From a virus, in IMG/VR virus record IMGVR_UViG_3300021400_001206, positions 11,782-75,781 of that record: a stretch of DNA of 64,000 nt. One strand, written 5' to 3'. The position numbers and the translations under genes are program-made. Positions 35,858 through 48,396 of this stretch are shown piece by piece. How positions within the stretch are numbered: position 1 is the first letter of the stretch; the number at the start of each line of letters is the position of its first letter. Below the pieces are notes generated by a model. It was given only the letters and a program-made list of their open reading frames with translations, made no database searches and was not told where the DNA came from.

Positions 35858-36019
35858 TGAATGAAAAGAATGTTGTAATTAGAGAAGATGAGAAGGATGT
35901 TGTTTGGTGTCCGACGTGCGGTGCGGCATTTTATAAGGATTCCCCCAATTGGGGCAGAGAAACTTGCGGGCATTGCGGAACGGTGCTGAATTGGGAAAAT
36001 GTAGAAAAAGAGGATTAAG
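35858..36019 (+). CDS. zinc-ribbon small protein (~53 aa)
   Basis: CPTCG...CGHCG motif. RBS AGAGGAGTTTTAGAAT. Confidence 0.4.
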
Positions 36020-36021
36020 TC

Positions 36022-36384
36022 ATGTATTATGGAAATAAAAGTTCACATTGGATAGCGGCGCTGGCTCTGTTTTTTTACGCTATTTTGATAGTAGGACTTA
36101 TTGCTTTTTCACTTTGGAGACCTGTTGATAAGGTTTCCAATATACGAGAAGAGACAATTGTAGTTACGGATAAAATGGTAAAAGATGACGTTTATTTGAT
36201 TTATTCGGAAGATGCTACATATGAAATTACTGATAGTTGGTTGTATCCAAGATTTAATTCGTCTGACTTATATGGAAAGATTCAGGTTGGAGAGAGTTAT
36301 AGAATAACAGTGGGTGGAAGCAGAATTCCATTTTTGAGTTGGTATCCAAATATATATAGGGCGGATAAGATAGAGAAGGGATGA
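36022..36384 (+). CDS. membrane-anchored hypothetical protein (120 aa)
   Basis: N-terminal TM helix then soluble domain. Confidence 0.45.
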   Translation: MYYGNKSSHWIAALALFFYAILIVGLIAFSLWRPVDKVSNIREETIVVTDKMVKDDVYLIYSEDATYEITDSWLYPRFNSSDLYGKIQVGESYRITVGGSRIPFLSWYPNIYRADKIEKG

Positions 36385-36389
36385 TAAGA

Positions 36390-36425
36390 AGGGATGATAA
36401 ATCATCCCTTCTTTTTTTGATTTAT
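36390..36425 (+). terminator. intrinsic terminator AAGGGATGATaaATCATCCCTT plus T7
   Basis: Perfect hairpin followed by TCTTTTTTTG. Confidence 0.6.
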
Positions 36426-36699
36426 CGTTTTTTGGTCTATCGTTTTTTGGTTTTTAAAATTGATTTGGAGAGGGAAATGCGGAGAACATACCCTTTTGTT
36501 AATTTTAAAAAAATTTTATCCCGAAATATACCCCCCCACATAAACATACAGGGAGTGGCACTAGCTGAGAAGAATGTACGAGTACGTCGGTAGAAAGCAC
36601 GGCCCTAAAAAACGTAGAATCAAACAATACCTGGGGAATAATAAATATTAGCAAATAAAAAAAGAATCTTTTTTAGGACAAATAAGCCTGATTAAAAAG

Positions 36700-37260
36700 A
36701 GTTTTGAAAATGAGCGCGGCATGCAAGCGTCCGCTGGATAGACGCTTGCATGCCGGTTTGGCACTTTAACGCGTTAAAGCGTTATACTTTAGCGCGGTGA
36801 AGCGTGACACTGTAACGCGGTGAAGTCCCGATTTGCCCTTGATTTCAGCGCTTCACCGCGCTAAAGCGTTAACGCGTTACCACTGCACTGCGTTAAAGTG
36901 TAGCACTTCACCGCGGTGAAGTGATGAAATCGGGGGCAAAATTGTTTTTGGCTGTTTTTCGTGCGGCGTCGCGGTGACACTTCACCGCGTTAAAGCACGA
37001 CACTTCAATGCGTTAAAGCACGACACTCCACTACGGTGAAGTGCTAAAGAAGCCAGCACTTCACCGCGTTAAAGTGCTAAAGAAGCCAACACTTCAGCGC
37101 GTTGAAGTGCTAACACATCATCACTTTAACACGTTGAAGTGTAACGATGTAAAGTGATACAACATTAATACATTAATATGTTAATACATTAATACATTAA
37201 TGTGTTAATAAGATAACACTTTAATGCGTTAAAGTGATAAAGAACTAAAGTAAAAAAAAT
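36700..37260. repeat. iteron-like repeat array: long hairpin, ~15 degenerate CACTTCACCGCGTTAAAGYG / CGCGGTGAAG units in both orientations, then TTAATACA AT-rich tandem repeats
   Basis: Hairpin GGCATGCAAGCGTC-cgctggata-GACGCTTGCATGCC at ~36717-36753. AACGCGTT and CCGCGG palindromes. GC-rich island in an AT-rich context. AT-rich TTAATACATTAATATGTTAATACATTAATACATTAATGTGTTAATAAG at ~37170-37215. Confidence 0.7.
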
Positions 37261-37283
37261 AAAAAATTTTTTCAAAAAAATGC

Positions 37284-37312
37284 TTGACAAAAGACTAACT
37301 CAATAGTATAAT
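37284..37312 (+). promoter_or_regulatory. sigma70 consensus promoter TTGACA-N17-TATAAT (first cassette promoter)
   Basis: TTGACAaaagactaactcaatagTATAAT. Confidence 0.6.
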
Positions 37313-37369
37313 AATATCAAGAGATGAGGGAAGAAACCTCACAGACCAAAAGAAAAGGAGATTAAAACA

Positions 37370-37549
37370 ATGACGACAATGGAACTGAGAATCAAGGAAA
37401 TGGAACTGAGTGCAATGGTAGATGTAGCTTACAACAGATTGATGGAAAATCCAAAAACCGATTTATCTTGGATGGATGCAGATGCCAAGTACAGAAAAGC
37501 CTTTAAGGAGTGGTCAAAAATTGCGGATGAGGCGCTCAAGCGCATCTGA
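37370..37549 (+). CDS. cassette small protein (59 aa)
   Basis: ATG after AAAAGGAGATTAAAACA. Followed by terminator AGCTCAACTgaaaAGTTGAGCT+T-run. Confidence 0.5.
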   Translation: MTTMELRIKEMELSAMVDVAYNRLMENPKTDLSWMDADAKYRKAFKEWSKIADEALKRI

Positions 37550-37589
37550 GAAAAAAAAGCTCAACTGAAAAGTTGAGCTTTTATTATTT

Positions 37590-37660
37590 GGCTAACGTGA
37601 ACAGCCGTTCGGGCACCGAAAAATTATACCACACAGCGATGCAGTTTGTCAAGACTAAAT
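37590..37660 (-). ncRNA. promoter-plus-GC-hairpin element (copy 1): minus-strand TTGACA-N18-TGgTATAAT firing into hairpin GTGCCCGAACGGCTGTTCACG
   Basis: Reverse complement of ATTATACCACA-N10-TTTGTCAA gives consensus -10/-35. Transcript would begin in the GC hairpin and end at the upstream bidirectional terminator. Confidence 0.4.
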
Positions 37661-37781
37661 TATTCGTCAAATGTAACAAAAAGAAACACCTAAAATTGGG
37701 CAAAATTATTTACTAAAACCTATTGACAAAAGAGGGCAAGCATGATATGATAGTATCATCAAAAGAAAGGAGAACAAAGAC

Positions 37782-38087
37782 ATGACAAGCAACCACTACA
37801 GTTCAGACAGAAAAAAGAGAGAAGAACTTATTCAAATGATCGGTTTAGGAACACCAGTAAAAGAAGTTAGAGTAGACAGAGGACATCGCAACGGCGCTGA
37901 AATCCACGTTATCAGCACAACAGCAATCATCACAATCTACAATGAGAGAACACACAAAATGATAACAAAACTTATTGCAAGACCAGGTCAGATAAAAAGA
38001 TACTACAACGCAAATGAAACAATTCCAACAGACCTGCTGAGACTTGCAAAAGAACACACAAAAGCTGGATATAATGAAGTAAGATAA
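37782..38087 (+). CDS. cassette protein (101 aa)
   Basis: Own promoter TTGACAaaagagggcaagcatgaTATGAT, RBS AAAGGAGAACAAAGAC, terminator GGCGGAAACGCC+T-run. Confidence 0.55.
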   Translation: MTSNHYSSDRKKREELIQMIGLGTPVKEVRVDRGHRNGAEIHVISTTAIITIYNERTHKMITKLIARPGQIKRYYNANETIPTDLLRLAKEHTKAGYNEVR

Positions 38088-38109
38088 AGGCGGAAACGCC
38101 TTTATTTTT

Positions 38110-38200
38110 TATATAACCGACTGACCCGAACGGTCGTTCGGGGCCCGCAAAATTATACCACATATGAGTGCGGTTTGTCAAGACTAAATTATTCGTCAAA
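38110..38200 (-). ncRNA. promoter-plus-GC-hairpin element (copy 2)
   Basis: AAAATTATACCACATATGAGTGCGGTTTGTCAAGAC reverse-complements to TTGACA-N18-TGgTATAAT. Hairpin CCCGAACGGTCGTTCGGG. Confidence 0.4.
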
Positions 38201-38319
38201 TGTGACAAAAAACAAATCCTATTTTTATGCAATATTTTTAATATAATTTTTAAAAAACTATTGACACCAAAAACCTAACATGATATACTTATATCATCAA
38301 GAGAGAGGAGAACAAAAAA

Positions 38320-38469
38320 ATGACAAACTTCATCAACTACATCGTAGGAAAAGACATTAGAGACAAGGACGACAAAATCCTGCACTACGCAATCTTAGCA
38401 TGGACATTCGCTGGTTCAATTCTTGGTATCGTTGTTATGACAGCTGAGTGCCTTGGATATATCGCATAA
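38320..38469 (+). CDS. cassette small membrane protein (49 aa)
   Basis: MTNFINYIVGKDIRDKDDKILHYAILAWTFAGSILGIVVMTAECLGYIA. Promoter TTGACAccaaaaacctaacatgaTATACT. Confidence 0.45.
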   Translation: MTNFINYIVGKDIRDKDDKILHYAILAWTFAGSILGIVVMTAECLGYIA

Positions 38470-38485
38470 ATAAAAAAAAATAAAA

Positions 38486-38520
38486 AAGGGCTTGACAAAA
38501 GCCAAGCCCTTTGATATAAT
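38486..38520 (+). promoter_or_regulatory. terminator-promoter module: hairpin AGGGCTTGacaaaaGCCAAGCCCT contains the -35 TTGACA; TTTGATATAAT follows
   Basis: Spacer 17 nt, extended -10 TGaTATAAT. The hairpin terminates the upstream gene. Confidence 0.6.
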
Positions 38521-38550
38521 AAAATCATCAAAGGAAAGGAAATAAAAAAA

Positions 38551-38820
38551 ATGAAAAATATTTATTTTGAAAGAATCAATAATTTAGTCCTTGCTCTTAA
38601 TGATAATGAAGTCCCCTGCAATGTAGAAAATTGTTATGACGGTTACAAAGTAACTTTTCCTTGGTGCAAAGGTGATGTAATTGCTCATTCTGGAATGTAC
38701 AACAATGAAGATTATGGATATACGGTGGAGTCTTTCGGGTTCCCGTGGGATGGATGTGATGTTACAGTGCTCAGTGTAAGAGAAGCCGTTGAATTAATCA
38801 CTGACTTCTATGGGGCTTAA
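38551..38820 (+). CDS. cassette protein (89 aa), paralog of 42558-42827
   Basis: MKNIYFERINNLVLALNDNEVPCNVENCYDGYKVTFPWC. About 65% identical to MKNNYFETIADLVLALCDNGIPCNVEDLYDGYKVTFPWC. Confidence 0.6.
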   Translation: MKNIYFERINNLVLALNDNEVPCNVENCYDGYKVTFPWCKGDVIAHSGMYNNEDYGYTVESFGFPWDGCDVTVLSVREAVELITDFYGA

Positions 38821-38832
38821 AAAAATTAAAAA

Positions 38833-38867
38833 TGGGGGTTGACAAATTTCAACCCCCATGATATAAT
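38833..38867 (+). promoter_or_regulatory. terminator-promoter module (GGGGGTTGacaaatttCAACCCCC + ATGATATAAT)
   Basis: Same architecture as 38486. Confidence 0.6.
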
Positions 38868-38899
38868 AAGACCATAGAAAAGAAAAGGAGATTAAAAAA

Positions 38900-39136
38900 A
38901 TGACATTTGAAATGACACTTGGACTTATCGCTCTTGGCTCCGCAATTGCAATGTTTGGTCTTTTCTTCCTTAGCATTTGCTTCTCAGCAAAAAAGGCTGA
39001 AAAAGATTTAAAGGAAAACTTAGAACACATGGCTAAAATCGATGAAGTGTTTAAGGAAAAAGCGAAAAGAGAAGGCTACGGAAACAGACTTGAAAACTTA
39101 GAAAACTTTAATATAAGTGACATTTGGAATTGCTAA
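38900..39136 (+). CDS. cassette membrane protein (78 aa), paralog of 42236-42472
   Basis: MTFEMTLGLIALGSAIAMFGLFFLSICFSAKKAEKDLKENLEHMAKIDEVF, ~88% identical to its paralog. Confidence 0.6.
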   Translation: MTFEMTLGLIALGSAIAMFGLFFLSICFSAKKAEKDLKENLEHMAKIDEVFKEKAKREGYGNRLENLENFNISDIWNC

Positions 39137-39210
39137 AAAAAAATAAAAAAGGCTTGACAAAAGTCAAGCCTTTTGATATACTTATATCATCAAGAGAGAG
39201 GAGAACAAAA

Positions 39211-39411
39211 ATGATAGTTCATTACATGGTAACAAGCGGAGACTGGTGCATGGGAGCTCATTCAAGATATAATTCTTATGAAGAAGCTAAAAAAGAATAT
39301 GAAGTATGCAAAGAAAACAGTATCTATGGTTCATTAAAAAAGGTTACTATCAAAGGCTTTTTAAAGAAAAACATCTTTATCGAGGAAATCGAAAGTTTTT
39401 CAATTAAGTAA
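39211..39411 (+). CDS. cassette protein (66 aa)
   Basis: ATG at 39211 after GAGAGAGGAGAACAAAA. The track ORF 39124 start lies in the promoter module. Confidence 0.5.
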   Translation: MIVHYMVTSGDWCMGAHSRYNSYEEAKKEYEVCKENSIYGSLKKVTIKGFLKKNIFIEEIESFSIK

Positions 39412-39479
39412 CATAAAGGGTTGACAACTCCAACCCTTTATGTTACAATAAAATCATCAAAAGAAAGGAAATAAAAAAA

Positions 39480-39662
39480 ATGACAACATTTGTAGTATGG
39501 GTAATAGATTCTGCGGGACGGCACTGGGAAGAAGAAACTTTCACTATTTATGAAGCCGCTTATAATTTTGGAGCTCATCTGGCGGAAGACATGTGTGCTG
39601 AAGAAGATTGGTATATTGAACGCCGTGTTGATGGACAGTTTGATTGTTATATAGGTTTTTAA
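39480..39662 (+). CDS. cassette acidic protein (60 aa)
   Basis: Promoter module GGGTTGACAACTCCAACCC + TGTTACAAT. Terminator ACTGGCAAAACGCCAGT + T7. Confidence 0.55.
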   Translation: MTTFVVWVIDSAGRHWEEETFTIYEAAYNFGAHLAEDMCAEEDWYIERRVDGQFDCYIGF

Positions 39663-39689
39663 AAAAATAAGAAACTGGCAAAACGCCAG

Positions 39690-39760
39690 TTTTTTTGTTA
39701 CCCCGAACGGTCGTTCGGGGTCCGAAAAATTATACCACGCGCGTCAGCCATTTGTCAACA
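39690..39760 (-). ncRNA. promoter-plus-GC-hairpin element (copy 3); predicted ~75-nt transcript hairpin-A7-hairpin-U tract
   Basis: Reverse complement TTGACAAATGGCTGACGCGCGTGGTATAAT. Transcript GGACCCCGAACGACCGTTCGGGGTAACAAAAAAACTGGCGTTTTGCCAGTTTCTTATTTTTTT. Confidence 0.45.
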
Positions 39761-39890
39761 AAAAAATATCCGTCAAAATGCACAAAGATCTCATCCTGAA
39801 ATTGTGCAATATTTTTTATAAAAAATTATTGACAAATATATATAATAGAGTTATAATTATATCATCAAAAGAAGAAAGGAAATAAAAAAA

Positions 39891-40052
39891 ATGACAACAA
39901 TCAACAACCTTCCGGCATACGCAAGCAACTATGAATACATGGTAGTAAGACTGATTGACGGTGAGTACTGGTTCTATGGTGCATATAGCAACGGTAAACG
40001 TGCTGAGAGTGTCGCTCTTGAAATCGGTGGAGAAATCATTCACAATAAATAA
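39891..40052 (+). CDS. cassette small protein (53 aa)
   Basis: Promoter TTGACAaatatatataatagagtTATAAT. RBS AAGAAAGGAAATAAAAAAA. Confidence 0.5.
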   Translation: MTTINNLPAYASNYEYMVVRLIDGEYWFYGAYSNGKRAESVALEIGGEIIHNK

Positions 40053-40057
40053 AAAAA

Positions 40058-40092
40058 TAAAAATGGGGGTTGACAAACCTCAACCCCCATGA
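40058..40092 (+). promoter_or_regulatory. terminator-promoter module (GGGGGTTGACAAACCTCAACCCCC + ATGATATAAT) driving an ORF-less unit
   Basis: Consensus hexamers with 17-nt spacer. Confidence 0.6.
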
Positions 40093-40107
40093 TATAATAA
40101 AATCATC

Positions 40108-40200
40108 AAAAGAAAGGAAGCAACAAAACAGAATAGGGTGGGCGGACGAGCCAAGCGCCGGTTGCTCATCTGAAATGCAGAAAGCTTCTAAAAAAATAAA
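40108..40200 (+). ncRNA. ORF-less cassette: candidate small RNA A (homolog of 45425-45510)
   Basis: GGGTGGGCGGACGAGCCAAGCGCCGGTTGCTCATCTGAAATGCAGAAAGCTTC aligns with GGTGGTCGGCAGAGCCTAGCGCCTATCGGCTATCTGAACAACGGAAAGTCACTTC, with a compensatory GAGC/GCTC versus AGCC/GGCT pairing. Longest ORF is only 18 codons. Confidence 0.4.
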
Positions 40201-40269
40201 AAAAGTAGTTGACAAACTACAAAACATCTGATATAATAAGACCATAGAAAAGAAAGAGAGGAAAACAAA

Positions 40270-40374
40270 ATGAAGTATATGATGTTTGAGGAACTGGTCA
40301 AGATGGTAGCATACAACGAAATCACCGAAGCGGAAGCTGAGGAAATCGCTGAAGAGCTTCTCAAAGATTTCTAA
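40270..40374 (+). CDS. cassette micro-protein (34 aa), paralog of 41747-41854
   Basis: MKYMMFEELVKMVAYNEITEAEAEEIAEELLKDF versus MMKYMMFEMLVEMVAKNELTEAEAEAVAEELLLPY. Confidence 0.5.
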   Translation: MKYMMFEELVKMVAYNEITEAEAEEIAEELLKDF

Positions 40375-40456
40375 AAAAAATTAAAAAGAGGGGTTGACAA
40401 ACCTCAGCCCCTCTGATATAATAGAATCATAGAAAAGAGAAAGAGAGGGAAACAAA

Positions 40457-40645
40457 ATGAAAATTTGGATTGTAAAAGGACACGCATACGCAACAAAAGA
40501 ACTTGCTAAAGAAGCTTGTGCTTATGCTAATTACTGTGAAGAGATGTGCGGTGGTTATGGTCTTTATGAAGTAACTGAAGCCGAAATTGAAACAGAAGTA
40601 AAAGAGAGAGTGCCAGAAAAATACAGAAAAATATATTGTAAATAA
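40457..40645 (+). CDS. cassette protein (62 aa)
   Basis: Promoter module GAGGGGTTGACAAACCTCAGCCCCTC + TGATATAAT. Confidence 0.55.
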   Translation: MKIWIVKGHAYATKELAKEACAYANYCEEMCGGYGLYEVTEAEIETEVKERVPEKYRKIYCK

Positions 40646-40689
40646 AATTAAAAAAGGGGTTGACAAACCTCAACCCCTTTGATATAATA

Positions 40690-40850
40690 AAGACATAAGG
40701 TAAGGGCAGTCAGAGAGGCTGACAGCAACACAAGGTTCGATTCCTTCCCCTACTTCGAAGGGTGTTTTAAAGCAAGTTCACCCAGACGAGGCGAGTAAGT
40801 TCTAAACTAAGTCGAAAATCTCCCACTCATATCAAAAACTTCTAAAAAAT
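40690..40850 (+). ncRNA. ORF-less cassette with tRNA-like T-arm (CAAGGTTCGATTCCTTC) and hairpin GTCAGagaggCTGAC; candidate structured RNA
   Basis: GGTTCGATTCC is the canonical tRNA T-arm sequence. A full cloverleaf could not be built by eye, so it is called tRNA-like only. Confidence 0.3.
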
Positions 40851-41111
40851 AAAAATAAAAGGTTGACAAACTTCAACCTATCTGATATAATAAAATCATC
40901 AAGAGAGAGGAACATAAAAAATGAGAGACCCGCCGTAAAAATCAACAAACTAAAGAAATGCGCCAGAGCCTGGGGACATTAGGGCGCGATGAATGCAGGC
41001 ACGGTGAGCGGACAAGTTCCCATCCCTCACCAAAAAAAAATAAAAAAAATAGTTGACAAATTCAGCTCGGTTTGATATAATAGAATCATCAAGAGAGAGG
41101 AGAACAAAAAC

Positions 41112-41303
41112 ATGACAACAATCATCATCGCCGAAGGAATCACAGCAACCATGACAAACCGCAAGGTAGAGCAGTACCGCAAGGCTATGGCGGCTACTGA
41201 GGCAAGTCGAAGCGTCTGGTGGGATGAACACTTCGACTGGTCGGACTGGGAAGAGTTCTGGAATGACGAGTTTGAAGCTTGGGAGAGATTTGTCAACTCC
41301 TGA
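41112..41303 (+). CDS. cassette acidic Trp-rich protein (63 aa)
   Basis: Promoter module at ~41048-41085. Protein ends WDEHFDWSDWEEFWNDEFEAWERFVNS. Confidence 0.55.
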   Translation: MTTIIIAEGITATMTNRKVEQYRKAMAATEASRSVWWDEHFDWSDWEEFWNDEFEAWERFVNS

Positions 41304-41304
41304 G

Positions 41305-41365
41305 TTTCGGCGCGCCGTGGGCGCACGGGCTTCGCCCGTTCAACCATTATAGCATATCCTCAGGG
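41305..41365 (-). ncRNA. promoter-plus-GC-hairpin element (copy 4)
   Basis: Reverse complement TTGACAAAACCCTGAGGATATGCTATAAT then GGCGCGCC-containing hairpin region. Confidence 0.4.
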
Positions 41366-41700
41366 TTTTGTCAATAGGCAAATTGCACAAAGATTTAGCA
41401 TAAAAATTTCCCATTTTTGTGCAATTTGCCTATTGACAAATCAGTGCAGATGTGCTTCTCGTCAAACTGCACAAAAATAACGCCCAAAACCACCTCATTT
41501 TTGTGCAATATTTCTACTTGACTTTTTTGAAGTTGTGCAAACTACACAAAAGAAGCGCTCTATTATTGTGCAGTTTGCACAAAAAAATTTTTTGTCAATA
41601 GTAAAAATAAAAAATAGCAAAATATACAAAATTTTTATGATCCTTTTGTGCAAAATGTAAAACCGCATAAAAATTAAAAAAATCATTTGACAAGTCTCTA
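41340..41700. promoter_or_regulatory. noncoding hub dense in TGTGCA/TGCACA dyads, with a perfect 25-bp inverted repeat TTTGTCAATAGGCAAATTGCACAAA ... TTTGTGCAATTTGCCTATTGACAAA
   Basis: At least 8 copies of TTGTGCAA/TTGCACAA within ~360 bp, including TGTGCAgttTGCACA. No ORF. Confidence 0.6.
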
Positions 41701-41746
41701 AAAAAGTAGTATTATTATATCAGAAACAAGAGAGGAGAACAAAAAA

Positions 41747-41854
41747 ATGATGAAGTACATGATGTTTGAAATGCTTGTAGAAATGGTCGCAAAAAACGAA
41801 CTGACTGAGGCTGAGGCTGAGGCGGTCGCTGAAGAACTTCTTCTTCCCTACTAA
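41747..41854 (+). CDS. cassette micro-protein (35 aa), paralog of 40270-40374
   Basis: See paralog. Promoter TTGACAagtctctaaaaaagtagTATTAT. Confidence 0.45.
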   Translation: MMKYMMFEMLVEMVAKNELTEAEAEAVAEELLLPY

Positions 41855-41934
41855 AAAAAATAAAAAAAGGGGGTTGACAAACCTCAACCCCTATAGTATA
41901 ATAAAGACAGATCAAAAGAAAAGGAGATAAAAAA

Positions 41935-42156
41935 ATGACAAAGGATTTCTACTACAACGTAAATGGTACAGAGTTTCATGATACAGTAGCTTTTGGACAG
42001 GCTTGGAAAGAAGCTAAGGCACTTGCTAGAGAAGAGCATTGCGGGATTGAAAGAACTGTAGTTTGTGGGGAAAACATTAGATACGAATTCTATGCAAAGG
42101 GCGGAATTTTCGTAGGCAATGAATTTAAAGCCGACTGGGATATGGAAATTCTTTAA
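41935..42156 (+). CDS. cassette protein (73 aa)
   Basis: Promoter module GGGGGTTGACAAACCTCAACCCC + TAGTATAAT. Confidence 0.55.
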   Translation: MTKDFYYNVNGTEFHDTVAFGQAWKEAKALAREEHCGIERTVVCGENIRYEFYAKGGIFVGNEFKADWDMEIL

Positions 42157-42235
42157 AAAAATAAAATAGGGGGTTGACAAATTCAATCCCCTATAGTATA
42201 ATAAGACCATAGAAAAGAAAGAGAGGAAATAAAAA

Positions 42236-42472
42236 ATGACATTCGAAATGACACTTGGACTTATTGCTTTTGGTTCTGCGGTTGTGATGTTCGGTTTCTT
42301 CCTTCTTAGTATTTACTTTTCAGCAAAAAAAGCTGAAAAAGATTTAAAAGAAAATTTAGAACATATGGCAAAAATTAATGAGGTGTTTGAAGAGAAGGCA
42401 AGAAGAGAAGGCTACGGAAACAGACTTGAAAATTTAGAAAATTTTAATATAAGCGACCTTTGGAATTGCTAA
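42236..42472 (+). CDS. cassette membrane protein (78 aa), paralog of 38900-39136
   Basis: See paralog. Confidence 0.6.
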   Translation: MTFEMTLGLIAFGSAVVMFGFFLLSIYFSAKKAEKDLKENLEHMAKINEVFEEKARREGYGNRLENLENFNISDLWNC

Positions 42473-42557
42473 AAAAAAATTAAAATGGGGGTTGACAAAT
42501 CAACCCCCGACTGATATAATAAAATCATCAAGAGAGAAAAAGAAAGGAAATAAAAAA

Positions 42558-42827
42558 ATGAAAAATAACTATTTTGAGACAATTGCTGATTTAGTCCTTG
42601 CTCTTTGTGATAATGGAATCCCCTGCAATGTAGAAGATTTATATGATGGTTACAAGGTGACTTTCCCTTGGTGTTGCGGTGATGTGATTGCTCACTCTTA
42701 TATGCTTGGCAAGGGTAAGCACAGATACACGGTTGAATCTATGGGATTCCCGTGGGATGAGGACGATGTCACATTGCTCGATGTGCAGGAAGCTATTGAT
42801 TTAATCACCAAGTACTATAAAGAATAA
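42558..42827 (+). CDS. cassette protein (89 aa), paralog of 38551-38820
   Basis: Start at ATG 42558 after AAAGAAAGGAAATAAAAAA. The track ORF 42492 start lies inside the promoter. Confidence 0.55.
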   Translation: MKNNYFETIADLVLALCDNGIPCNVEDLYDGYKVTFPWCCGDVIAHSYMLGKGKHRYTVESMGFPWDEDDVTLLDVQEAIDLITKYYKE

Positions 42828-42839
42828 AAGGGGGTTTTA

Positions 42840-42925
42840 ACCCCCTTTTTTCGTCGCCGCCTGGGCGGCCGGGCGCAGCCCGTGGAACCATTATAACATA
42901 CCTTCCAGCTTTTGTCAATAGGCAA
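42840..42925 (-). ncRNA. promoter-plus-GC-hairpin element (copy 5)
   Basis: Reverse complement TTGACAAAAGCTGGAAGGTATGTTATAAT. Hairpin CGCCGCCTGGGCGGCCGGGCGCAGCCCG. Confidence 0.4.
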
Positions 42926-43035
42926 TTTGTACAAAAAATTAGCTGAAAAAATTCCCAAATTTGTGCAATATTTTACTTGACTTCCTATGTAGGCTATGCT
43001 ATACTAGTATCATCAAGAGAGAGGAGAACACAGAC

Positions 43036-43203
43036 ATGACAGAGGCAATCGCAATCTACAACAAGACAATCGAGAATTTTGAATATATGGTCGGTCATAG
43101 GGCAAATATTTCTGACCGAATGGACCTTTGGTTCCGTATCGTTGATAGACTGGCAAAGACGCCGGATGAATACAAGGCTATGATGGAAGCCTTCCCGAAT
43201 TAA
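43036..43203 (+). CDS. cassette protein (55 aa)
   Basis: Promoter TTGACTtcctatgtaggctatgcTATACT. ATG at 43036. Confidence 0.5.
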   Translation: MTEAIAIYNKTIENFEYMVGHRANISDRMDLWFRIVDRLAKTPDEYKAMMEAFPN

Positions 43204-43279
43204 AAAATTTAAAATGGGGGTTGACAAATCTCAACCCCTATAGTATAATTATATCATCAAGAGAAAGGAAGTTAAAACA

Positions 43280-43441
43280 ATGACAAGAATTCAGATTGAT
43301 GAAATAGAAAAACAGCTTAAAGATAAAAGACGTGCTTATAATAAGTGCCGGAGTTTTGCAAAAAGAATTAAATTGGATTATGAAATTGGAGTTCTGTATG
43401 AGCAACTGGCGGAACTTTATAAAAACCTTAAGGAAAATTAA
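43280..43441 (+). CDS. cassette protein (53 aa)
   Basis: Promoter module GGGGGTTGACAAATCTCAACCCC + TAGTATAAT. Confidence 0.5.
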   Translation: MTRIQIDEIEKQLKDKRRAYNKCRSFAKRIKLDYEIGVLYEQLAELYKNLKEN

Positions 43442-43458
43442 AAAGGGGGTAAATAAAA

Positions 43459-43644
43459 ATGTCTTTAATGAAATCAATCACAAGCGGAAAAGAACATAGA
43501 CGCCCCTATTCTGGAAGTAAAGCAATAGATAAAACATGCAGAAATCATGGCGGGTGCCCTTGGTGTGAGGAAAATCGAAAGTATAAATATTTAAAAACTT
43601 CTCAAAAAATGCTTGACAAAATGAAAGAAGCAGGCTATAATTAA
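43459..43644 (+). CDS. cassette Zn-binding-like protein (61 aa), co-transcribed with 43280 gene
   Basis: CRNHGGCPWC motif. Its 3' coding sequence (MLDKMKEAGYN) itself encodes TTGACA-N17-TATAAT for the next unit. Confidence 0.5.
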   Translation: MSLMKSITSGKEHRRPYSGSKAIDKTCRNHGGCPWCEENRKYKYLKTSQKMLDKMKEAGYN

Positions 43645-43679
43645 TACATAAGATAAAGAAAAGAGAGGAGAAACACATA

Positions 43680-43844
43680 ATGAGTAGATTTGACATGATG
43701 TTCGCAGTAGCCAAGCGGTGGGGATTTGAAGCTGAGATGACCATTTGGTTTTGCCGACTCGCTGAGCGTGAAGATGTAGATGACAGCGTTGTCACCCTGG
43801 CATTTGTAACAACTTTAAATACTCCAGTATGCGAAGCTAACTAA
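43680..43844 (+). CDS. cassette protein (54 aa)
   Basis: ATG after AAGAGAGGAGAAACACATA. Confidence 0.45.
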   Translation: MSRFDMMFAVAKRWGFEAEMTIWFCRLAEREDVDDSVVTLAFVTTLNTPVCEAN

Positions 43845-43914
43845 AACAAAAGGGGTTGACAAACCTCAACCCCTTTGATATAATAAATACAGAATAAAGG
43901 AAAGGAAAGAAAAA

Positions 43915-44151
43915 ATGAAAGTGCTTGTAACAAAAGCTAATAGTGATTATTGGTATAAAATTCGTGTCATCAATACTATGGAAGACCTTCAAAGATTTAT
44001 TAAAGAATGTAAACATGATGTTGTTATTGGAGAGAACACTTATACTGATGATGACATTTTTGATTATTGGGAAGGAATGAAAGCAGAAGATATTCCCATT
44101 ATCAAAGAATGTTCTTTACATCTTATAATTTATAATAGCTGGCTTGAATAA
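43915..44151 (+). CDS. cassette protein (78 aa)
   Basis: Promoter module AAGGGGTTGACAAACCTCAACCCCTT + TGATATAAT. Confidence 0.55.
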   Translation: MKVLVTKANSDYWYKIRVINTMEDLQRFIKECKHDVVIGENTYTDDDIFDYWEGMKAEDIPIIKECSLHLIIYNSWLE

Positions 44152-44159
44152 AAATGGGG

Positions 44160-44250
44160 GGCAAGTACCCTCATTTTTTGTCGCCTCGTGGGCGCGCGGG
44201 CCCTGCCCGCGGAACCATTATAGCATATAGGTTGGGTTTTTGTCAAGAGA
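44160..44250 (-). ncRNA. promoter-plus-GC-hairpin element (copy 6)
   Basis: Reverse complement TTGACAAAAACCCAACCTATATGCTATAAT. Hairpin GCGGGCAGGGCCCGCGCGCCCACGAGGCGAC. Confidence 0.4.
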
Positions 44251-44372
44251 AAAATGAAAAAATTTTACACAAAAATTTTTCCTTTAATTTATGCAATTTG
44301 TATATTGACTTTTTTACTATTTTTTATTATAATTTATACATAAGATAAAGAAAGGAAATAGGAAATAAAGAA

Positions 44373-44609
44373 ATGATAGCCTATAGAACAGTTTATATCC
44401 CAGTAGAAAAGAAATGTGAAGTTAAATTTATTCTTTTTATTCAGCCAATTTGCGACCCTCATTCTTATGAGGAACCACATTATTTAAGAGATAGATTTGG
44501 TGATTTAATTACTTTTGATACTCGTAAAGAAGCTGAGGAAAGAAAAGCTATCTATGAGCAGGGATGGTGTACCGTAACAATTGAGGAGCAAGTTACCCCG
44601 ATTGAATAA
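44373..44609 (+). CDS. cassette protein (78 aa)
   Basis: Promoter TTGACTtttttactattttttatTATAAT. Confidence 0.5.
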   Translation: MIAYRTVYIPVEKKCEVKFILFIQPICDPHSYEEPHYLRDRFGDLITFDTRKEAEERKAIYEQGWCTVTIEEQVTPIE

Positions 44610-44694
44610 AAAAATTAAAAAGGGGGTTGACAAAACAACCCCCAACTGATATAATAAAATCATCAAAGAAAAGCAAAAAGAAAGGAAATAAAAA

Positions 44695-44874
44695 ATGAGA
44701 ACAGTAAGATATATCACAAAGTGCGGTAATGTAACAGAAAACTTTTCAGTAGCTAAGACAGAGGGAATTGAGGAAACTTTCCTGCTTGAGGTCAATGAGA
44801 CCCCCGAAAATGTAAAGCTTCAGATGCGGAAACACGCTCTGAAAGCCGAACAGAAAAGGCGTGAAAAAAAGTAA
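44695..44874 (+). CDS. cassette basic protein (59 aa)
   Basis: MRTVRYITKCGNVTENF...KAEQKRREKK. Promoter module GGGGGTTGACAAAACAACCCCC. Confidence 0.45.
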   Translation: MRTVRYITKCGNVTENFSVAKTEGIEETFLLEVNETPENVKLQMRKHALKAEQKRREKK

Positions 44875-44951
44875 AAAAAGGGGGTTGACAACCTCGACCC
44901 CTTATGATATAATAAAATCATCAAGAGAAAAAAAGAAAGGAAATAAAAAAA

Positions 44952-45224
44952 ATGAAGATTTGTATTAATACTTGTTTTGGCGGTTTTGGTCTTTCAGATG
45001 AAGCTTTGCGGATGCTTGGATTTAAAACTCGTTATCCACTAATTTCTCGAACAGACCCTCGTCTAATCGAGGTAGTTAGCACTCTCGGAGAAGCCGCAAA
45101 CGGTTGTTTCGCTCGGCTTGCTATTGTAAGTATTCCGGATGAAGCTACTGATTGGGAGATTGACGAGTATGATGGCTCTGAGGGCATCATCTACGTTCTT
45201 GACGGAAAACTTCATCATATTTAA
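44952..45224 (+). CDS. cassette protein (90 aa)
   Basis: Promoter module GGGGGTTGACAACCTCGACCCC + TATGATATAAT. Confidence 0.55.
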   Translation: MKICINTCFGGFGLSDEALRMLGFKTRYPLISRTDPRLIEVVSTLGEAANGCFARLAIVSIPDEATDWEIDEYDGSEGIIYVLDGKLHHI

Positions 45225-45239
45225 AAACAGGGGGTAATA

Positions 45240-45330
45240 CCCTCTGTTTTTTTTCGTTCGGCGCGCCAACACTCGGGTTGGCGCGAAAAATCCATTATAC
45301 CACACCCTGAGTGGTTTTGTCAAGCATTTT
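45240..45330 (-). ncRNA. promoter-plus-GC-hairpin element (copy 7); predicted RNA GGAUUUUUCGCGCCAACCCGAGUGUUGGCGCGCCGAACG-A8-CAGAGGGUAUUACCCCCUG-U5
   Basis: Reverse complement GCTTGACAAAACCACTCAGGGTGTGGTATAATGG. Two hairpins, the second being the upstream gene's terminator read from the other side. Confidence 0.45.
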
Positions 45331-45424
45331 TTCGAAAAAAATTGCACAAAAAAATATCCCAAAATTAGTACAAAATTCCGACTTGTATTTTCTAAAAAAT
45401 TTTAGTATAATTATATCAAGATAA

Positions 45425-45510
45425 AGAAAGGACAACAAAATTAAGTAAGGTGGTCGGCAGAGCCTAGCGCCTATCGGCTATCTGAACAACGGAAAGTCAC
45501 TTCAAAAAAT
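45425..45510 (+). ncRNA. ORF-less cassette: candidate small RNA B (homolog of 40108-40200)
   Basis: See 40108-40200 alignment. Promoter TTGTATtttctaaaaaattttagTATAAT. Confidence 0.4.
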
Positions 45511-45932
45511 CTTAAAAAAACTGTTGACAAATAAAAAATCTTATGGTATAATAAATACATAAGATAAAGAAAGGACAGTGACACTCCCATGAGAGACCCG
45601 CCGACATAAGCCCTTTGAATTGAGCCTTTGGATGGGCATAAGGCTTAGAAAAAAAATAAAAAAAACTGTTGACAAAATAAAAAAGATATGATATAATAAA
45701 TACAGAAGTTAAGCAAAGGAAAGGACATTAAGTGTATGGGAGTCAGGCAGAAAGCCCCATGTAGGTGGATGTAAGGGGCTAACAAAAATACTATCAGCCA
45801 CGTGGTATAAGGCGCCAAATCCACGAAAACAAAATAAAAAAAAATAAAAAAACTGTTGACAAAATAAAAAAAATAAGTTATAATAAATACATAGTAAAGA
45901 AAACAAAACATAAAAAGAAAGAGGTGTCTAGT

Positions 45933-46289
45933 ATGACAAAACGTGAGATGTTCGCAGAAATTCGTAAGGTAGTTATTGACAACGCTGAGATGGTAGCTTT
46001 CATTGACAAGCAGATTGAGCTTCTTGACAATAGAAAGGCGTCCCCAAAGAAGCCGACTAAAACTCAGCTTGAGAACGAGGGCTTCAAGGCTGACATTATC
46101 GCTTCCCTCATTGAGGTTGGCAAGCCTGTAACAATTAAGGAGCTGTGTGACGCTTGTCCGTCCATTGTAAAGCTGTCCAATCAGAGAATTACTCACCTGC
46201 TCATGGCTCTCCAGTCTGAGAACAAGGTCGAGAGAACTCAGGTGAAGAAAGTTCCGTACTTCGCCATTGCTCAGACTGAGACTGAGTAA
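45933..46289 (+). CDS. cassette protein (118 aa), winged-helix-like; paralog of 53762-54103
   Basis: MTKREMFAEIRKVVIDNAEMVAFIDKQIELLDNRKASPKK..., ~55% identical to MTKREMFVAIREVVVDNADMVAFIDKEIALLDKKRNAPKK.... RBS AAGAAAGAGGTG. Confidence 0.55.
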   Translation: MTKREMFAEIRKVVIDNAEMVAFIDKQIELLDNRKASPKKPTKTQLENEGFKADIIASLIEVGKPVTIKELCDACPSIVKLSNQRITHLLMALQSENKVERTQVKKVPYFAIAQTETE

Positions 46290-46406
46290 CACAAAGGGTT
46301 TTGCGGTTATCCCTAAAAACCGCTCCTTATGGGGATTGTACCGTTGCGGAAAGTAAGACATACAGTGTATGCTGAATCGTGGTTCAACTCCACGTATCCC
46401 CACTGA

Positions 46407-46481
46407 GGGGGTGTAGCTCAGTAGGTTTAGAGCACACGACTTTTAATCGTGGTGTCGAGGGTTCGAATCCCTTCACCCCCA
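46407..46481 (+). tRNA. tRNA-Lys (anticodon UUU; loop CUUUUAA)
   Basis: Cloverleaf: acceptor GGGGGTG/CACCCCC, D-arm GCTC-AGTAGGTTTA-GAGC, anticodon stem CACGA/TCGTG, T-arm GAGGG-TTCGAAT-CCCTT, discriminator A. No encoded CCA. Confidence 0.7.
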
Positions 46482-46696
46482 CTCAGAATCTAATATTCGT
46501 TTTCCTTTCTTTTGGTGCGGGGGTTGTCGTAGATGGCAACCCCCTTTTGGCGTCGCGCGATGGGTCGCCGTGCGACGCCATTGTCAATATGTAATGTTGC
46601 ACAAATTTTTGATCCGCATTTTGTATAAAATTACTTATTGACTTTTTTCCTAATTTTTTGTATAATTATATCATCAACAGAAAGGAAATAAACGAT

Positions 46697-46894
46697 ATGA
46701 ACAACATGGATTGGGTTACAAAAATGAAAACTGGTATGGAACTTATTCACTCTGCTTGTAAAGAAAACACTGATTGGACTAAATGCAAAGAATGTCCATT
46801 TACAAACTATTGTGATGCTATTAATCTCGCTATATCTCAAAAGACACCCGAAGAAGAGAGATGGATTGAGGAAGGCGGTGAGAGTATAAGATGA
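46697..46894 (+). CDS. cassette Cys-containing protein (65 aa)
   Basis: MNNMDWVTKMKT...CKECPFTNYC. Confidence 0.5.
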   Translation: MNNMDWVTKMKTGMELIHSACKENTDWTKCKECPFTNYCDAINLAISQKTPEEERWIEEGGESIR

Positions 46895-47184
46895 AAATGT
46901 ATAAAATTTATATCTCTGATAAGGTTGGCGGTTGGAACACTATGCCGACCGACTGGATGGTAAAGGAAGACTTTGAGAGAGCCTACAAAACGCTCACAAA
47001 GCCTAGCATGTTTGGTTCTGACCGCTTCAAGATTGAAGTCAAAGAAAGAGACAGTTTTTGTATAAAAGAGTGTGTTTGTGGCACTTGTGAGAGAAAAGAT
47101 AATTGTAGTTACTGTGATTGCGATATTTGTGAAGATTTTGACTGCCAAGTCTGCTTCTGCAATATGTACAAAGAAGGGGATTAA
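46891..47184 (+). CDS. cassette Cys-rich protein (97 aa), co-transcribed
   Basis: CVCGTCERKDNCSYCDCDICEDFDCQVCFC. Confidence 0.5.
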   Translation: MKMYKIYISDKVGGWNTMPTDWMVKEDFERAYKTLTKPSMFGSDRFKIEVKERDSFCIKECVCGTCERKDNCSYCDCDICEDFDCQVCFCNMYKEGD

Positions 47185-47275
47185 AAATCCTCTTTTTTTG
47201 TGCAAAATTACAACTTGACATTTTTCCTAAAATTTATTATAATTTATACATAAGATAAAGAAAGGAACACACCAA

Positions 47276-47467
47276 ATGAAAGTAAAAATCTCTTATATAA
47301 TGCGAGTAGAAAAAGTTGTAGAAATGACACCTGAAAAATATTGTTATCTTAGGGCAGACCACAATGACCCTCAATATTTTCCACCTGAAGCTCGTGAAAC
47401 TGATATGCGCCCTTATAGCGAAAAAGATGAAAGTGAACTCACAGATTATTTCTTTAGAGAAAGATAA
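47276..47467 (+). CDS. cassette protein (63 aa)
   Basis: Promoter TTGACAtttttcctaaaatttatTATAAT. Confidence 0.5.
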   Translation: MKVKISYIMRVEKVVEMTPEKYCYLRADHNDPQYFPPEARETDMRPYSEKDESELTDYFFRER

Positions 47468-47703
47468 AATAAGGGGTTGACAACTCCAACCCCTTATGAT
47501 ATACTAATAACATAAGCGGTTCCACTGGATGCAAGTCGGAAGACCCGCAAATCTGCGGAGCGTCACCAGACGAAGATGATTAAATGTCGGATAAAAAGGA
47601 TGCAGCGCATCCCGACAGCCGCCTAAATAAAAAAATAAGGGGTTGACAACTCCAGCCCTTTATGATATACTAATATCATCAAGAAAAGAAAGGAAATAAA
47701 AAA

Positions 47704-47931
47704 ATGGCAATTAAGAATACAAAACAAAGTGAGATTGAAAGAAAGATTGAACTTCTCAAAGATATGCATAATTACATTCTTGATATGGGGGATGACTTTG
47801 TTTATGATATTTGGATTAAAGATGGTGTCCCCGATGAACCCGATGATGAAATCTTTGAATTTATCGCAAGCAACGATGATGACTGGCGTGAAGTTTGTGA
47901 ACTGTTTGGGAAGCTTATAGAAGAAGATTGA
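47704..47931 (+). CDS. cassette acidic protein (75 aa)
   Basis: Promoter module AAGGGGTTGACAACTCCAGCCCTTT + TGATATACT. Confidence 0.55.
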   Translation: MAIKNTKQSEIERKIELLKDMHNYILDMGDDFVYDIWIKDGVPDEPDDEIFEFIASNDDDWREVCELFGKLIEED

Positions 47932-47943
47932 AAGGAGATAAAA

Positions 47944-48201
47944 ATGACATCAACATCATTTATTCAGTATTATAAAAAGAGCGGTTTTGGTTGGCTTCGT
48001 ATGGAAGAGCTTCCAGTGGCGGTACAGAAAGATTTGATGAAAAGACTTGCGCGCTGTGACAAAAGAATTGGTGTATATGTATATCACTCTCATGAGGGGA
48101 ATCCTCAGGACGGAATTCATTTTGTGGGAATGAAAATTGGATACTATGTAAGAAGTAAAAATCCGTTTTCTTGGAAATTCAGAGCAACCGCTGGAAATTA
48201 A
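47944..48201 (+). CDS. cassette protein (85 aa), co-transcribed
   Basis: RBS AAAGGAGATAAAA. Confidence 0.5.
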   Translation: MTSTSFIQYYKKSGFGWLRMEELPVAVQKDLMKRLARCDKRIGVYVYHSHEGNPQDGIHFVGMKIGYYVRSKNPFSWKFRATAGN

Positions 48202-48267
48202 AAAAATAAGGGGTTGACAAAACTCAACCCCTTTGATATAATAATATTATCAAAAGGAAAGTAAAAA

Positions 48268-48387
48268 ATGAAAATTAAAATTGGTTGGAACCGTTGGAAT
48301 GACCCACACTGGGGTTATAACTACAATGAGAACTGTGATTATCATCATGAACTTTGTTTCTATAAACTCTATATCTGTTGGAAGTGA
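48268..48387 (+). CDS. cassette micro-protein (39 aa, Trp/Cys/His-rich)
   Basis: MKIKIGWNRWNDPHWGYNYNENCDYHHELCFYKLYICWK. Confidence 0.4.
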   Translation: MKIKIGWNRWNDPHWGYNYNENCDYHHELCFYKLYICWK

Positions 48388-48396
48388 GGTATTAAA

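Follow-up and report, generated by a model that had tools for sequence, protein, structure and literature searches.

Phased heptamers at divergent promoters and a multi-site hub in the early region of an uncultivated Clostridia phage

We analysed a 64,000-nucleotide stretch of viral DNA (positions 11,782 to 75,781 of IMG/VR record IMGVR_UViG_3300021400_001206; hereafter, the window), which is part of an uncultivated siphophage of gut or rumen Clostridia, approximately 130 kb in size and distantly related to phAss-1. Our subject is a non-coding interval at 41340-41700, the hub, and the heptamer that it concentrates, TTGTGCA. This heptamer is enriched, holds fixed positions that step by one helical turn upstream of divergent promoters, is conserved in relatives, recurs in their hubs and is a lineage-specific addition to an older promoter scaffold. 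At divergent promoter pairs, the heptamers are probably where a sequence-specific regulator binds and makes contact with RNA polymerase; the hub would be the spacer of one such pair, expanded to hold many sites. The original prediction for this DNA had proposed a hub of TGTGCA-type motifs and a dedicated transcription factor that controls the antisense elements and the adjacent cassette promoters. Its observation is confirmed and its interpretation partly supported: the heptamers behave like protein-binding sites tied to both kinds of promoter, and the factor itself is what we infer from that behaviour.

Heptamers are phased to divergent promoters

Read on either strand, TTGTGCA has eight exact copies in the 270 bp between 41384 and 41652, starting at 41417, 41501, 41533, 41566 and 41646 on the plus strand and at 41384, 41468 and 41576 on the minus strand. 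Eight hits in 270 bp have a window-wide Poisson probability of approximately 3e-11. The window as a whole contains 22 heptamers against 8.9 ± 3.1 expected from dinucleotide shuffles, and none of 100 shuffles reached 22; the motif is enriched over this shuffled background. The eight copies in the hub bear out the claim of at least eight such motifs there. Six of the eight hub copies are exact TTGTGCAA/TTGCACAA octamers and the other two are TTGTGCAG; a further copy at 41542-41550 (CTACACAAA), the ninth, is degenerate. In the region 36-56 kb, TGCACAAA/TTTGTGCA is one of the most strongly enriched 8-mers (17 observed, 1.4 expected, z=13), and those ranking above it are promoter, hairpin and ribosome-binding-site words. 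The extended form of the site is aaaTTTGTGCAAwwT. The window has a single perfect 17-bp palindrome of two heptamers, TTGTGCAgttTGCACAA (TTGTGCA-N3-TGCACAA), at 41566-41582, whose half-sites are about one helical turn apart, and 16 further occurrences were found in related loci. These loci are IMG/VR and metagenome stretches of at most 20 kb each, labelled with L numbers. The majority of heptamer copies are single half-sites and not palindromes. A literature search for the octamer returned primer sequences only.

The heptamers lie among promoters. Between 34 and 56 kb, the window is a plus-strand array of about 50 tiny genes, and a promoter scan of 36000-56000 found approximately 35 perfect (12/12) TTGACA-17-TATAAT promoters on the plus strand. 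The scan also found 11 perfect minus-strand promoters of the form TTGACA-17/18-TGnTATAAT, here called antisense promoters (P_as), with -35 boxes starting at 53324, 51832, 50206, 48739, 45323, 44246, 42918, 41374, 39758, 38181 and 37652. Downstream of each P_as lie one or two GC-rich hairpins, which vary in sequence between units and keep their fold, an A-rich linker and, mostly, also the terminator hairpin of the preceding gene; the predicted product is an RNA of about 65 nucleotides (nt), antisense to the 3' end of the upstream gene. Upstream of P_as, an alignment of the 11 units gave, in order, the -35 box of a gene promoter (on the reverse strand), N8-10, TTGCACAAA, N3-5, GGGA, N, TTTGTGCAA, N8-9 or N19-20, and TTGACA. 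The alignment thus places the dyad between divergent promoters, with each half aimed at the promoter that it adjoins.

This arrangement also accounts for the motif TTTGTCAATAGGCAAAT, which the original prediction had taken for a dyad operator with weaker copies beside most of the promoter-hairpin elements. It is instead the reverse complement of the P_as -35 box (TTGACA) together with its upstream flank. Copies with up to three mismatches do recur beside these elements, at 42911, 44239, 48732, 50199 and 53317 (nine matches in total against 0.8 expected), and those of units 45323 and 51832 are more diverged.

We measured the position of the heptamers as offsets from the first base of the -35 box, using the window together with 161 related loci (approximately 3200 promoters after removal of redundancy). 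TTGTGCA, in the same orientation as the promoter, started almost only at -16/-17, -26/-27 and -36/-37, and TGCACAA, in the opposite orientation, at -39/-40, -49/-50 and -59/-60. Offsets between these rungs of a 10-bp ladder were virtually empty. Heptamers were never found inside the core promoter, their starts falling 16 to 60 bp upstream of the -35 box. The centre-to-centre distance of divergent pairs was 24 bp in 79 cases and 34 bp in 65. Among 107 related loci, 62-69% of antisense-type promoters had the motif within 100 nt upstream, against 16-17% of mRNA-type promoters.

Outside the hub, 11 of the 14 heptamers of the window fall on this ladder, and those at 24936, 48418 and 62998 look like chance. 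A TGCACAA/TTGTGCA pair at 39779-39808 lies between P_as 39758 and the gene promoter 39829, at offsets of -27 and -50 to each, and another pair at 51852-51881 stands at -26 and -49 from P_as 51832. Single plus-strand sites at -49 from a P_as are found at 42961-42967 (P_as 42918; also -16 from a weak gene promoter at 42977, TTGACT/TATACT), 48782-48788 (P_as 48739; -26 from a weak gene promoter at 48808), 50249-50255 (P_as 50206; -16 from a weak gene promoter at 50265) and 53367-53373 (P_as 53324; -17 from a weak gene promoter at 53384). The minus-strand site at 45343-45349 is at -26 from P_as 45323. Gene promoters 46638 and 47215 have a minus-strand site at -40 (46598-46604, downstream of the tRNA-Lys and a winged-helix gene described below) and a plus-strand site at -17 (47198-47204), respectively.

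The two promoters of a pair differ in strength. In related loci, 132 of 173 P_as are perfect 12/12 matches. The paired gene promoters there are perfect in 7.5% of cases and have TTGACA as their -35 box in 22%, compared with 45% and 66% for stand-alone gene promoters. In the window, the corresponding figures are one of seven and two of seven for paired gene promoters, and 28 of 35 and 34 of 35 for stand-alone ones.

Each unit also has a TTTTGGGA(A/T)AAA box, located approximately 38-45 nt upstream of the antisense -35 box (for example, at 41408-41412 and 51866-51869) and kept in all units; in relatives without TGTGCA sites it adjoins the -35 box of the gene promoter. A factor with a wider distribution, possibly of the winged-helix family, might recognize this box. 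Many plus-strand promoters of the window have a -35 box that forms the 3' arm of a GGGGTTGA..TCAACCCC hairpin, terminator-like on the minus strand, and they resemble the promoter/stem-loop cassettes found at T4-type gene junctions.

Anatomy and conservation of the hub

The hub extends from P_as 41374 to the gene promoter that follows at 41687, a distance of 313 bp where about 60 bp is usual. At its left edge, P_as (41346-41374, minus strand) is a perfect sigma-A-type promoter, with a 12/12 match, a -35 TTGACA at 41374-41369, a 17-nt spacer and a TGnTATAAT element whose -10 box is at 41351-41346; the TTTGTCAA element of the original prediction is this -35 box seen on the plus strand. The 5' end of the predicted antisense RNA forms two GC-rich hairpins (CGGGCGAAGCCCG and GCGCCCACGGCGC; 41305-41340, minus strand; -25.9 kcal/mol, z -2.6), which have one mismatch in the ortholog L010, and the RNA would run into the 3' end of the gene at 41112-41303.

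Next to P_as lies the 25-bp inverted repeat that the original prediction had reported. Its arms, 41367-41391 and 41416-41440, are perfectly complementary as claimed, and the spacer is 24 nt, not 28. The left arm consists of the P_as -35 box and site S1 (TTGCACAAA, 41383-41391), which starts 16 nt upstream of that box. The right arm consists of site S2 (TTTGTGCAA, 41415-41423), at an offset of -49 from P_as, and a plus-strand TTGACA (41433-41438) that lacks a -10 box and forms a pseudo-promoter. The repeat is thus two mirrored arms, each made of a site and a -35 box. Between S1 and S2, at 41408-41412 on the minus strand, is TGGGA, the 'GGGA box' conserved in all units. A second divergent pair at 41467-41507, made of S3 (CTGCACAAA, 41467-41475) and S4 (TTTGTGCAA, 41499-41507), has the same spacing as S1/S2 and is an 84-bp direct repeat of it at 72% identity; it is followed by TTGACT (41519-41524) with no usable -10 box. 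Further to the right are an imperfect 17-bp palindrome, TTGTGCAaacTACACAA (41533-41549; S5 and a degenerate partner), which is kept in L010 and L307-L309, and, 33 bp from it, the perfect palindrome TTGTGCAgttTGCACAA (S6/S7) described above. A pseudo -35 box follows at 41591-41598 (TTTGTCAA, which is TTGACAAA on the minus strand), again without a -10 box, and then site S8 (TTTGTGCAA, 41645-41653, plus strand). The hub is closed by a plus-strand gene promoter at 41687-41715 (TTGACA-17-TATTAT, 11/12), which serves a 35-aa gene at 41747-41854, a paralog of 40270-40374. S8 starts 41 nt upstream of this promoter. Altogether, the hub has eight to nine near-consensus sites and three -35-like boxes without -10 boxes, and a stretch of more than 80% A+T (41585-41700) adjoins the array. 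Its sites are also more exact than those elsewhere: eight are exact, compared with 4 of the 11 promoter-proximal sites outside the hub.

The original prediction had described this region as lacking open reading frames (ORFs). A mechanical 63-aa ORF does exist on the minus strand at 41495-41686. No Shine-Dalgarno sequence precedes it, and in L010 a 1-bp indel disrupts its frame; the region is therefore best read as non-coding. Four independent assemblies, made from different samples, agree on every base of the hub, and near-identical strains show no variation in it; it is therefore not an assembly artefact. Small genes on its two sides are paralogous, namely 38551-39136 and 42236-42827 (89-aa and 78-aa genes) and 40270-40374 and 41747-41854 (34/35-aa genes), which points to segmental duplication and reshuffling of cassettes in the early region.

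The motif is also found in relatives. Searching IMG/VR contigs of 80-200 kb with a pattern for the whole unit gave 107 matching stretches, and a contig often had several. Three features at positions left free in the pattern were conserved as well: the -10 box in its extended form, the GC hairpin and the proximal site. The unit also occurs in contigs of metagenome-assembled genomes binned to Oscillospiraceae, Acutalibacteraceae, Lachnospiraceae and other Clostridia. It is present in the phAss-1 genome (TGCACAA..GGGA..TTGTGCA..TTGACA; L311 42850-43200, approximately 128.85-129.2 kb of the record), where there is also a five-site cluster inside a 1.1-kb gap without an annotated feature. When loci were collected by their winged-helix gene, without regard to the motif, the 54 loci obtained contained 384 heptamers against 137 expected. 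Heptamer-poor relatives keep the antisense promoter, the GC hairpin and the TTTTGGGAAAA box, and have A/T tracts in the heptamer positions. Since they keep the unit, the heptamers are a lineage-specific addition to an older scaffold, as expected for the sites of a regulator.

Hubs recur too. In the syntenic locus L010, an orthologous hub is present at 91% identity; a different gene lies downstream, the gene upstream has a diverged 3' end and the 25-bp repeat has three uncompensated mismatches. Hubs in L101, L075, L003, L083 and L307-L309 share sites with that of the window and do not share spacers. In the metagenome contigs L307-L309, the spacers are unrelated, and the heptamers, the palindromes and a palindrome spacing of 31-33 bp recur. 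A search of IMG/VR for hub orthologs by means of the flanking 63-aa protein found none, and an 18-mer of the hub spacer gave 86 hits, all of them chance except L010. One of the metagenome contigs, L309 (Ga0247611_10007897, 13232 bp), has TGTGCA hubs at both ends, at 46-229 and 13117-13216, which reflects either an assembly break at repeated hubs or a repeat boundary or genome terminus.

A second non-coding array, larger than the hub, lies at 36717-37240. It has about 15 copies of a palindrome of approximately 20 bp, CACTT(T/C)A(A/C)CGCG(T/G)T(A/G)AAGTG, at spacings of mostly 23, 32-33 and 96-97 bp, is preceded by a strong GC hairpin (36717-36755) and ends in a ATTAATACATTAAT sub-array (37160-37215). 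Arrays of this type directly adjoin TGTGCA hubs in L307, L308, L068, L083 and L100.

A possible mechanism and its candidate factors

The feature is a clade-wide new example of a familiar kind, regulator-binding sites around divergent promoters with one expanded multi-site region. The tiny early genes each have a consensus host-type promoter of their own, and at 11 places a P_as would fire back into the end of the preceding gene. The heptamer would be a protein-recognition element upstream of both promoters in a pair, each copy aimed at the promoter it precedes; starts 16/17, 26/27 or 36/37 bp before the -35 box put its centre near -48, -58 or -68. The inverted 'dyad' with a centre spacing of 24 or 34 bp would then be two promoter-proximal sites placed back to back. 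We suggest that the protein most likely binds the 17-bp palindrome as a dimer, and single sites with lower affinity or cooperatively. Because the sites lie on one face of the helix relative to polymerase, direct contact with promoter-bound RNA polymerase is the likeliest mode of action, and the strict one-turn ladder suggests a protein that has to face the polymerase rather than block it by occupancy. An outcome resembling that of phi29 p4 is conceivable, in which the strong P_as is held and the weak gene promoter helped. Because gene promoters are nearly as weak in units that lack the heptamer, we can only guess at the direction of regulation. Once early proteins accumulate, about a dozen pairs might flip together, and the hub would presumably be the most heavily occupied locus.

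A bolder version, which we hold to be unlikely, treats the heptamers as the cis-code of a genome-wide switch from early to delayed-early expression, conserved across the TAG-recoded Clostridia phage clade, with the hub and the second dyad array as a timer made of high-affinity sink or decoy sites. One factor, through the same polymerase contact, would shut off about a dozen antisense-RNA promoters and turn on the weak divergent gene promoters, and the promoter-less sink in the hub would set a threshold or delay.

The closest known parallel is the phi29 switch region, with its divergent promoters A2c/A2b and A3, reportedly worked out by Monsalve, Rojo, Salas and co-workers in the 1990s. Phi29 p4 binds inverted-repeat sites upstream of the -35 boxes between strong and weak divergent promoters, and through contact with the C-terminal domain of the RNA polymerase alpha subunit (alpha-CTD) it represses the strong promoter and activates the weak one. 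Here, similarly, phased sites precede both members of a divergent pair, one of them a 12/12 and the other a 9-11/12 match. By contrast, the p4 site, CTTTTT-N15-AAAATG, is unrelated to the heptamer (a p4 homolog was not looked for), and in our phage the module occurs about a dozen times per genome, with the strong promoter driving a small antisense RNA. Class I activators of the CRP type occupy sites at -61.5/-72.5/-82.5/-92.5. Like theirs, the heptamer positions step by one helical turn with empty gaps, and the target gene promoters have weak -35 boxes; such steps of about 10 bp with excluded intermediates are what a face-of-helix contact with polymerase, of the class I or p4 type, should give. 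Unlike class I sites, the heptamers also precede perfect promoters that need no activation, the weakness of the promoters is not site-specific, and the palindrome is TGTGC-N5-GCACA and not the TGTGA-N6-TCACA of CRP/FNR. Lambda OR (PR/PRM) shares with our units dimer-type dyad sites, adjacent copies that allow cooperativity and divergent strong and weak promoters, and the hub has two 17-bp palindromes three helical turns apart. Palindromic half-sites one turn apart, as in operators of the lambda/LexA type, were indeed found. Lambda operators, however, overlap core promoters, and the heptamers do not overlap -35, -10 or start positions but lie upstream, centred near -48 to -92; they are mostly single half-sites, with no repressor gene adjacent.

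Two further regulators provide partial parallels. The Omega repressor of pSM19035 recognizes 7-bp heptads in direct, converging or diverging orientation, arrayed upstream of several promoters and serving as both operator and centromere. Our sites likewise are 7-bp units in mixed orientations, in arrays upstream of promoters that would at the same time form a locus of high occupancy. Omega heptads follow one another without gaps, every 7 bp, whereas ours are 10, 24-25 or 31-34 bp apart, and we saw no ribbon-helix-helix protein or partition genes here. In T4, MotA boxes replace the -35 box at about -30. The likeness to MotA and to the T4 promoter/stem-loop (PeSL) cassettes lies in a short phage-specific motif that marks a promoter class across a region of tiny genes, with such cassettes at gene junctions; in contrast to MotA promoters, the -35 box is intact here and the motif is further upstream. 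We also tried by eye, against consensus sequences, to read TTGCAC...GGGA as a sigma-54 promoter, a sigma-H promoter or alternative -35/-10 boxes, and the sites as CRP/FNR, Rex, TnrA or AraR-like sites, and rejected all of these for misfits of spacing or order.

The antisense RNAs have a parallel of their own. Lambda OOP, a short RNA made from a constitutive promoter, is antisense to a neighbouring gene at its 3' end, and by analogy the P_as products are likely to be OOP-like in nature; that they exert OOP-like antisense control is a guess. Unlike OOP, they come in at least 11 copies per genome and have a GC-rich 5' hairpin, and the comparison concerns the element beside the dyads. No Rfam family scored above its gathering threshold for the antisense unit or the hub, and in the Rfam scan only tRNA-Lys passed; the hub gave sub-threshold matches to microRNA-precursor models, caused by the long inverted repeat. 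We also considered, and rejected, mimicry of CRISPR repeats by the GC hairpins, since no CRISPR direct-repeat model in Rfam matched even at E ≤ 1.

Which protein might bind the heptamers? The original prediction had named the products of 45933 and 53762 as candidates. The first is a 118-aa protein (45933-46289, plus strand) with three N-terminal helices and a C-terminal winged helix, and the second (53762-54103) is its paralog. Their family has more than 570 members, all unnamed, and corresponds to no Pfam or PHROG entry. The predicted structure (predicted local distance difference test (pLDDT) score 88) best matched the Hop2 DNA-binding domain, ArsR/SmtB and MarR-type regulators and Z-alpha domains, with weak Foldseek E values of about 0.01. 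The predicted fold agrees with the proposal; the recognition helix, however, does not follow the motif. Genes of this family rank with the commonest in motif loci, and the density of sites is highest in the 500 bp that flank the gene on each side. This peak follows from a conserved gene order: unit, leader transcripts, winged-helix gene, tRNA, unit and exonuclease-like gene. Each winged-helix gene is preceded by two to three tandem perfect promoters with short transcripts (45390-45920 and 53384-53750). Some of these transcripts contain tiny ORFs, such as MRDPPT* (approximately 45592-45612), to which Pro-Pro peptides in L203 and L213 are related; these elements may act as leader peptides or small RNAs. 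The binder could be the winged-helix proteins, a protein encoded outside the stretches examined or a host factor.

Several observations weigh against regulator binding as an account of the heptamers. The winged-helix family is as common in motif-poor relatives as in motif-rich ones. The same recognition helix, or nearly the same, can be found in loci that have the motif and in loci that lack it, and loci with the motif can have quite different helices; a search for covariation between recognition helix and motif showed no clean relation. Pfam and PHROG scans of about 35 early ORFs found no other DNA-binding domain, save weak RepL/Ren-like hints in 58001-58747. When we compared window proteins between motif-rich and motif-poor loci, none discriminated, and the apparent hits were antisense pseudo-ORFs overlying units. 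In orthologous units, the sites are 82.6% conserved and the flanks 76.9%, compared with 98-99% for the -35 and -10 boxes, and several window units have degenerate heptamer copies. The ladder could partly reflect a few copied ancestral unit types rather than independent selection. The gene promoters of units without a heptamer are perfect in 16% of cases and those of units with one in 7%, that is, near-equally weak, and this control with units lacking sites led us to drop the idea that the sites compensate for weak -35 boxes. Lastly, five of the eight hub sites have no recognizable promoter beside them and S8 is off the ladder; promoter control alone therefore does not explain the function of the hub.

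Alternative explanations and biological setting

Such promoter-less sites invite explanations of the hub that do not invoke promoters. It could be a replication origin or a centromere-like array, in which the heptamers are iterons for an initiator or partition protein beside an A/T-rich unwinding stretch and the dispersed copies are secondary sites. Non-coding arrays next to a stretch of more than 80% A+T, hubs that recur in relatives and flank a 13-kb contig at both ends, the nearby second dyad array, which in relatives directly adjoins the hubs, and a hub more conserved than its flanking genes would all fit. Yet the sites are in mixed, mostly inverted orientations, with irregular start-to-start spacings of 33, 51, 33, 32, 33, 10 and 70 bp, unlike regular direct iterons. 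No initiator, primase or helicase gene lies beside the hub, the ORFs resembling DNA polymerase III alpha and NrdD are 30 kb away, and GC skew tracks gene orientation only. An origin also leaves the 11 non-hub heptamers that are locked to promoter positions unexplained. The window has no strict DnaA box (TTATCCACA or TTWTNCACA) and the hub one relaxed match; a reading of the hub as a DnaA-box cluster was rejected for lack of a strict box. We consider an origin decidedly improbable. Recombination or partial duplication between near-identical promoter cassettes offers a different history, in which the hub is a functionless scar and the heptamers persist as part of the copied cassette. The 84-bp direct repeat (72% identity) and the three -35 boxes without -10 boxes look like decayed copies of a unit, the flanking genes have paralogs a few kb away (40270/41747, 38900/42236 and 38551/42558), these genes differ between the window and L010 around a common intergenic cassette, as at mosaic junctions, and sites are only weakly better conserved than flanks. 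Decay, however, would not produce hubs that share heptamers and palindromes with distant relatives while their spacers differ. Hub sites that are nearer to consensus than promoter-proximal sites, and a hub 91% conserved in L010 and identical in four samples, likewise speak against a scar, which we judge unlikely.

The position of the heptamers raises the question of whether a phage regulator is needed at all, as host RNA polymerase itself, through a UP-element-like alpha-CTD contact, or an abundant host factor might read them. In UP elements, alpha-CTD contacts DNA around -45 to -60, phased on the helix. The heptamers match this zone in position (-45 to -60) and helical phasing, their flanks are A/T-rich, their presence follows no phage protein tested, and a host-dependent distribution would explain why some lineages have them. 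The invariant core, TGTGCA, contains G/C, however, unlike the A/T-tract UP consensus (-38 to -59), and only the flanks are A/T-rich; 28 of the 35 stand-alone consensus promoters of the window do without a heptamer, and neither 17-bp palindromes nor promoter-less arrays are expected of a UP element. This makes a polymerase-read element very unlikely in our view. As for the 25-bp inverted repeat, it might act as a structure, either a DNA cruciform or a long read-through hairpin or processing site. Its fold is very stable (-41.9 kcal/mol, z -8.7), and the L010 sequence still folds (-32.1 kcal/mol). The three mismatches in L010 are uncompensated, though, other units and hubs have no long perfect repeat, and each arm is fully accounted for as a site and a -35 box. 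As the repeat lies upstream of both flanking promoters, it would be transcribed only by read-through. A structural role is therefore hardly credible, and sites of a polymerase-contacting regulator are the explanation that we favour.

The setting of these elements is a phage with a recoded stop codon. The G+C content of the window is 27-43%, and the portal-like protein is 39% identical to that of the gut phage phAss-1 and 26-30% identical to those of large Enterococcus and Brevibacillus siphophages; a DNA search of INPHARED found no close phage relatives. phAss-1 is a member of the 'code 15' clade and its presumed hosts are Clostridia. Neither promoters nor repeats are mentioned in the phAss-1 paper. 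With TAG as a sense codon, long ORFs appear at 5.5-33.5 kb, with up to 11 in-frame TAGs per gene, and the early genes (34-56 kb) contain none, which fits the phAss-1 clade. The TAG-recoded late or structural genes lie at 5500-33530, mostly on the minus strand, and at 58001-58747. No suppressor tRNA was found within the window, the sole tRNA being tRNA-Lys(UUU) at 46407-46482. Two plus-strand ORFs at 1.6-8.5 kb look, from their sequences and without a family search, like DNA polymerase III alpha and NrdD. Among early genes, those shared most widely in the group encode a DnaQ-like exonuclease-family protein (phrog_20187) and an NT5C-type 5'-nucleotidase, at 52040-52756 and 49104-49541; with the winged-helix gene and 54216-54608, the exonuclease-like and 5'-nucleotidase genes form a conserved core within an otherwise variable early region.

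If the heptamers are regulator sites, they would provide the first regulatory logic for a widespread group of uncultivated large gut and rumen phages, the TAG-recoding relatives of phAss-1. They would define a repeated module in which phased factor sites lie between a strong antisense-RNA promoter and a weak gene promoter, and much of the 'repeat' signal in such early regions would be promoter architecture rather than operators. The hub with its eight to nine sites, the 17-bp palindrome, the spacing rule and two winged-helix candidates without family annotation would make this logic testable.

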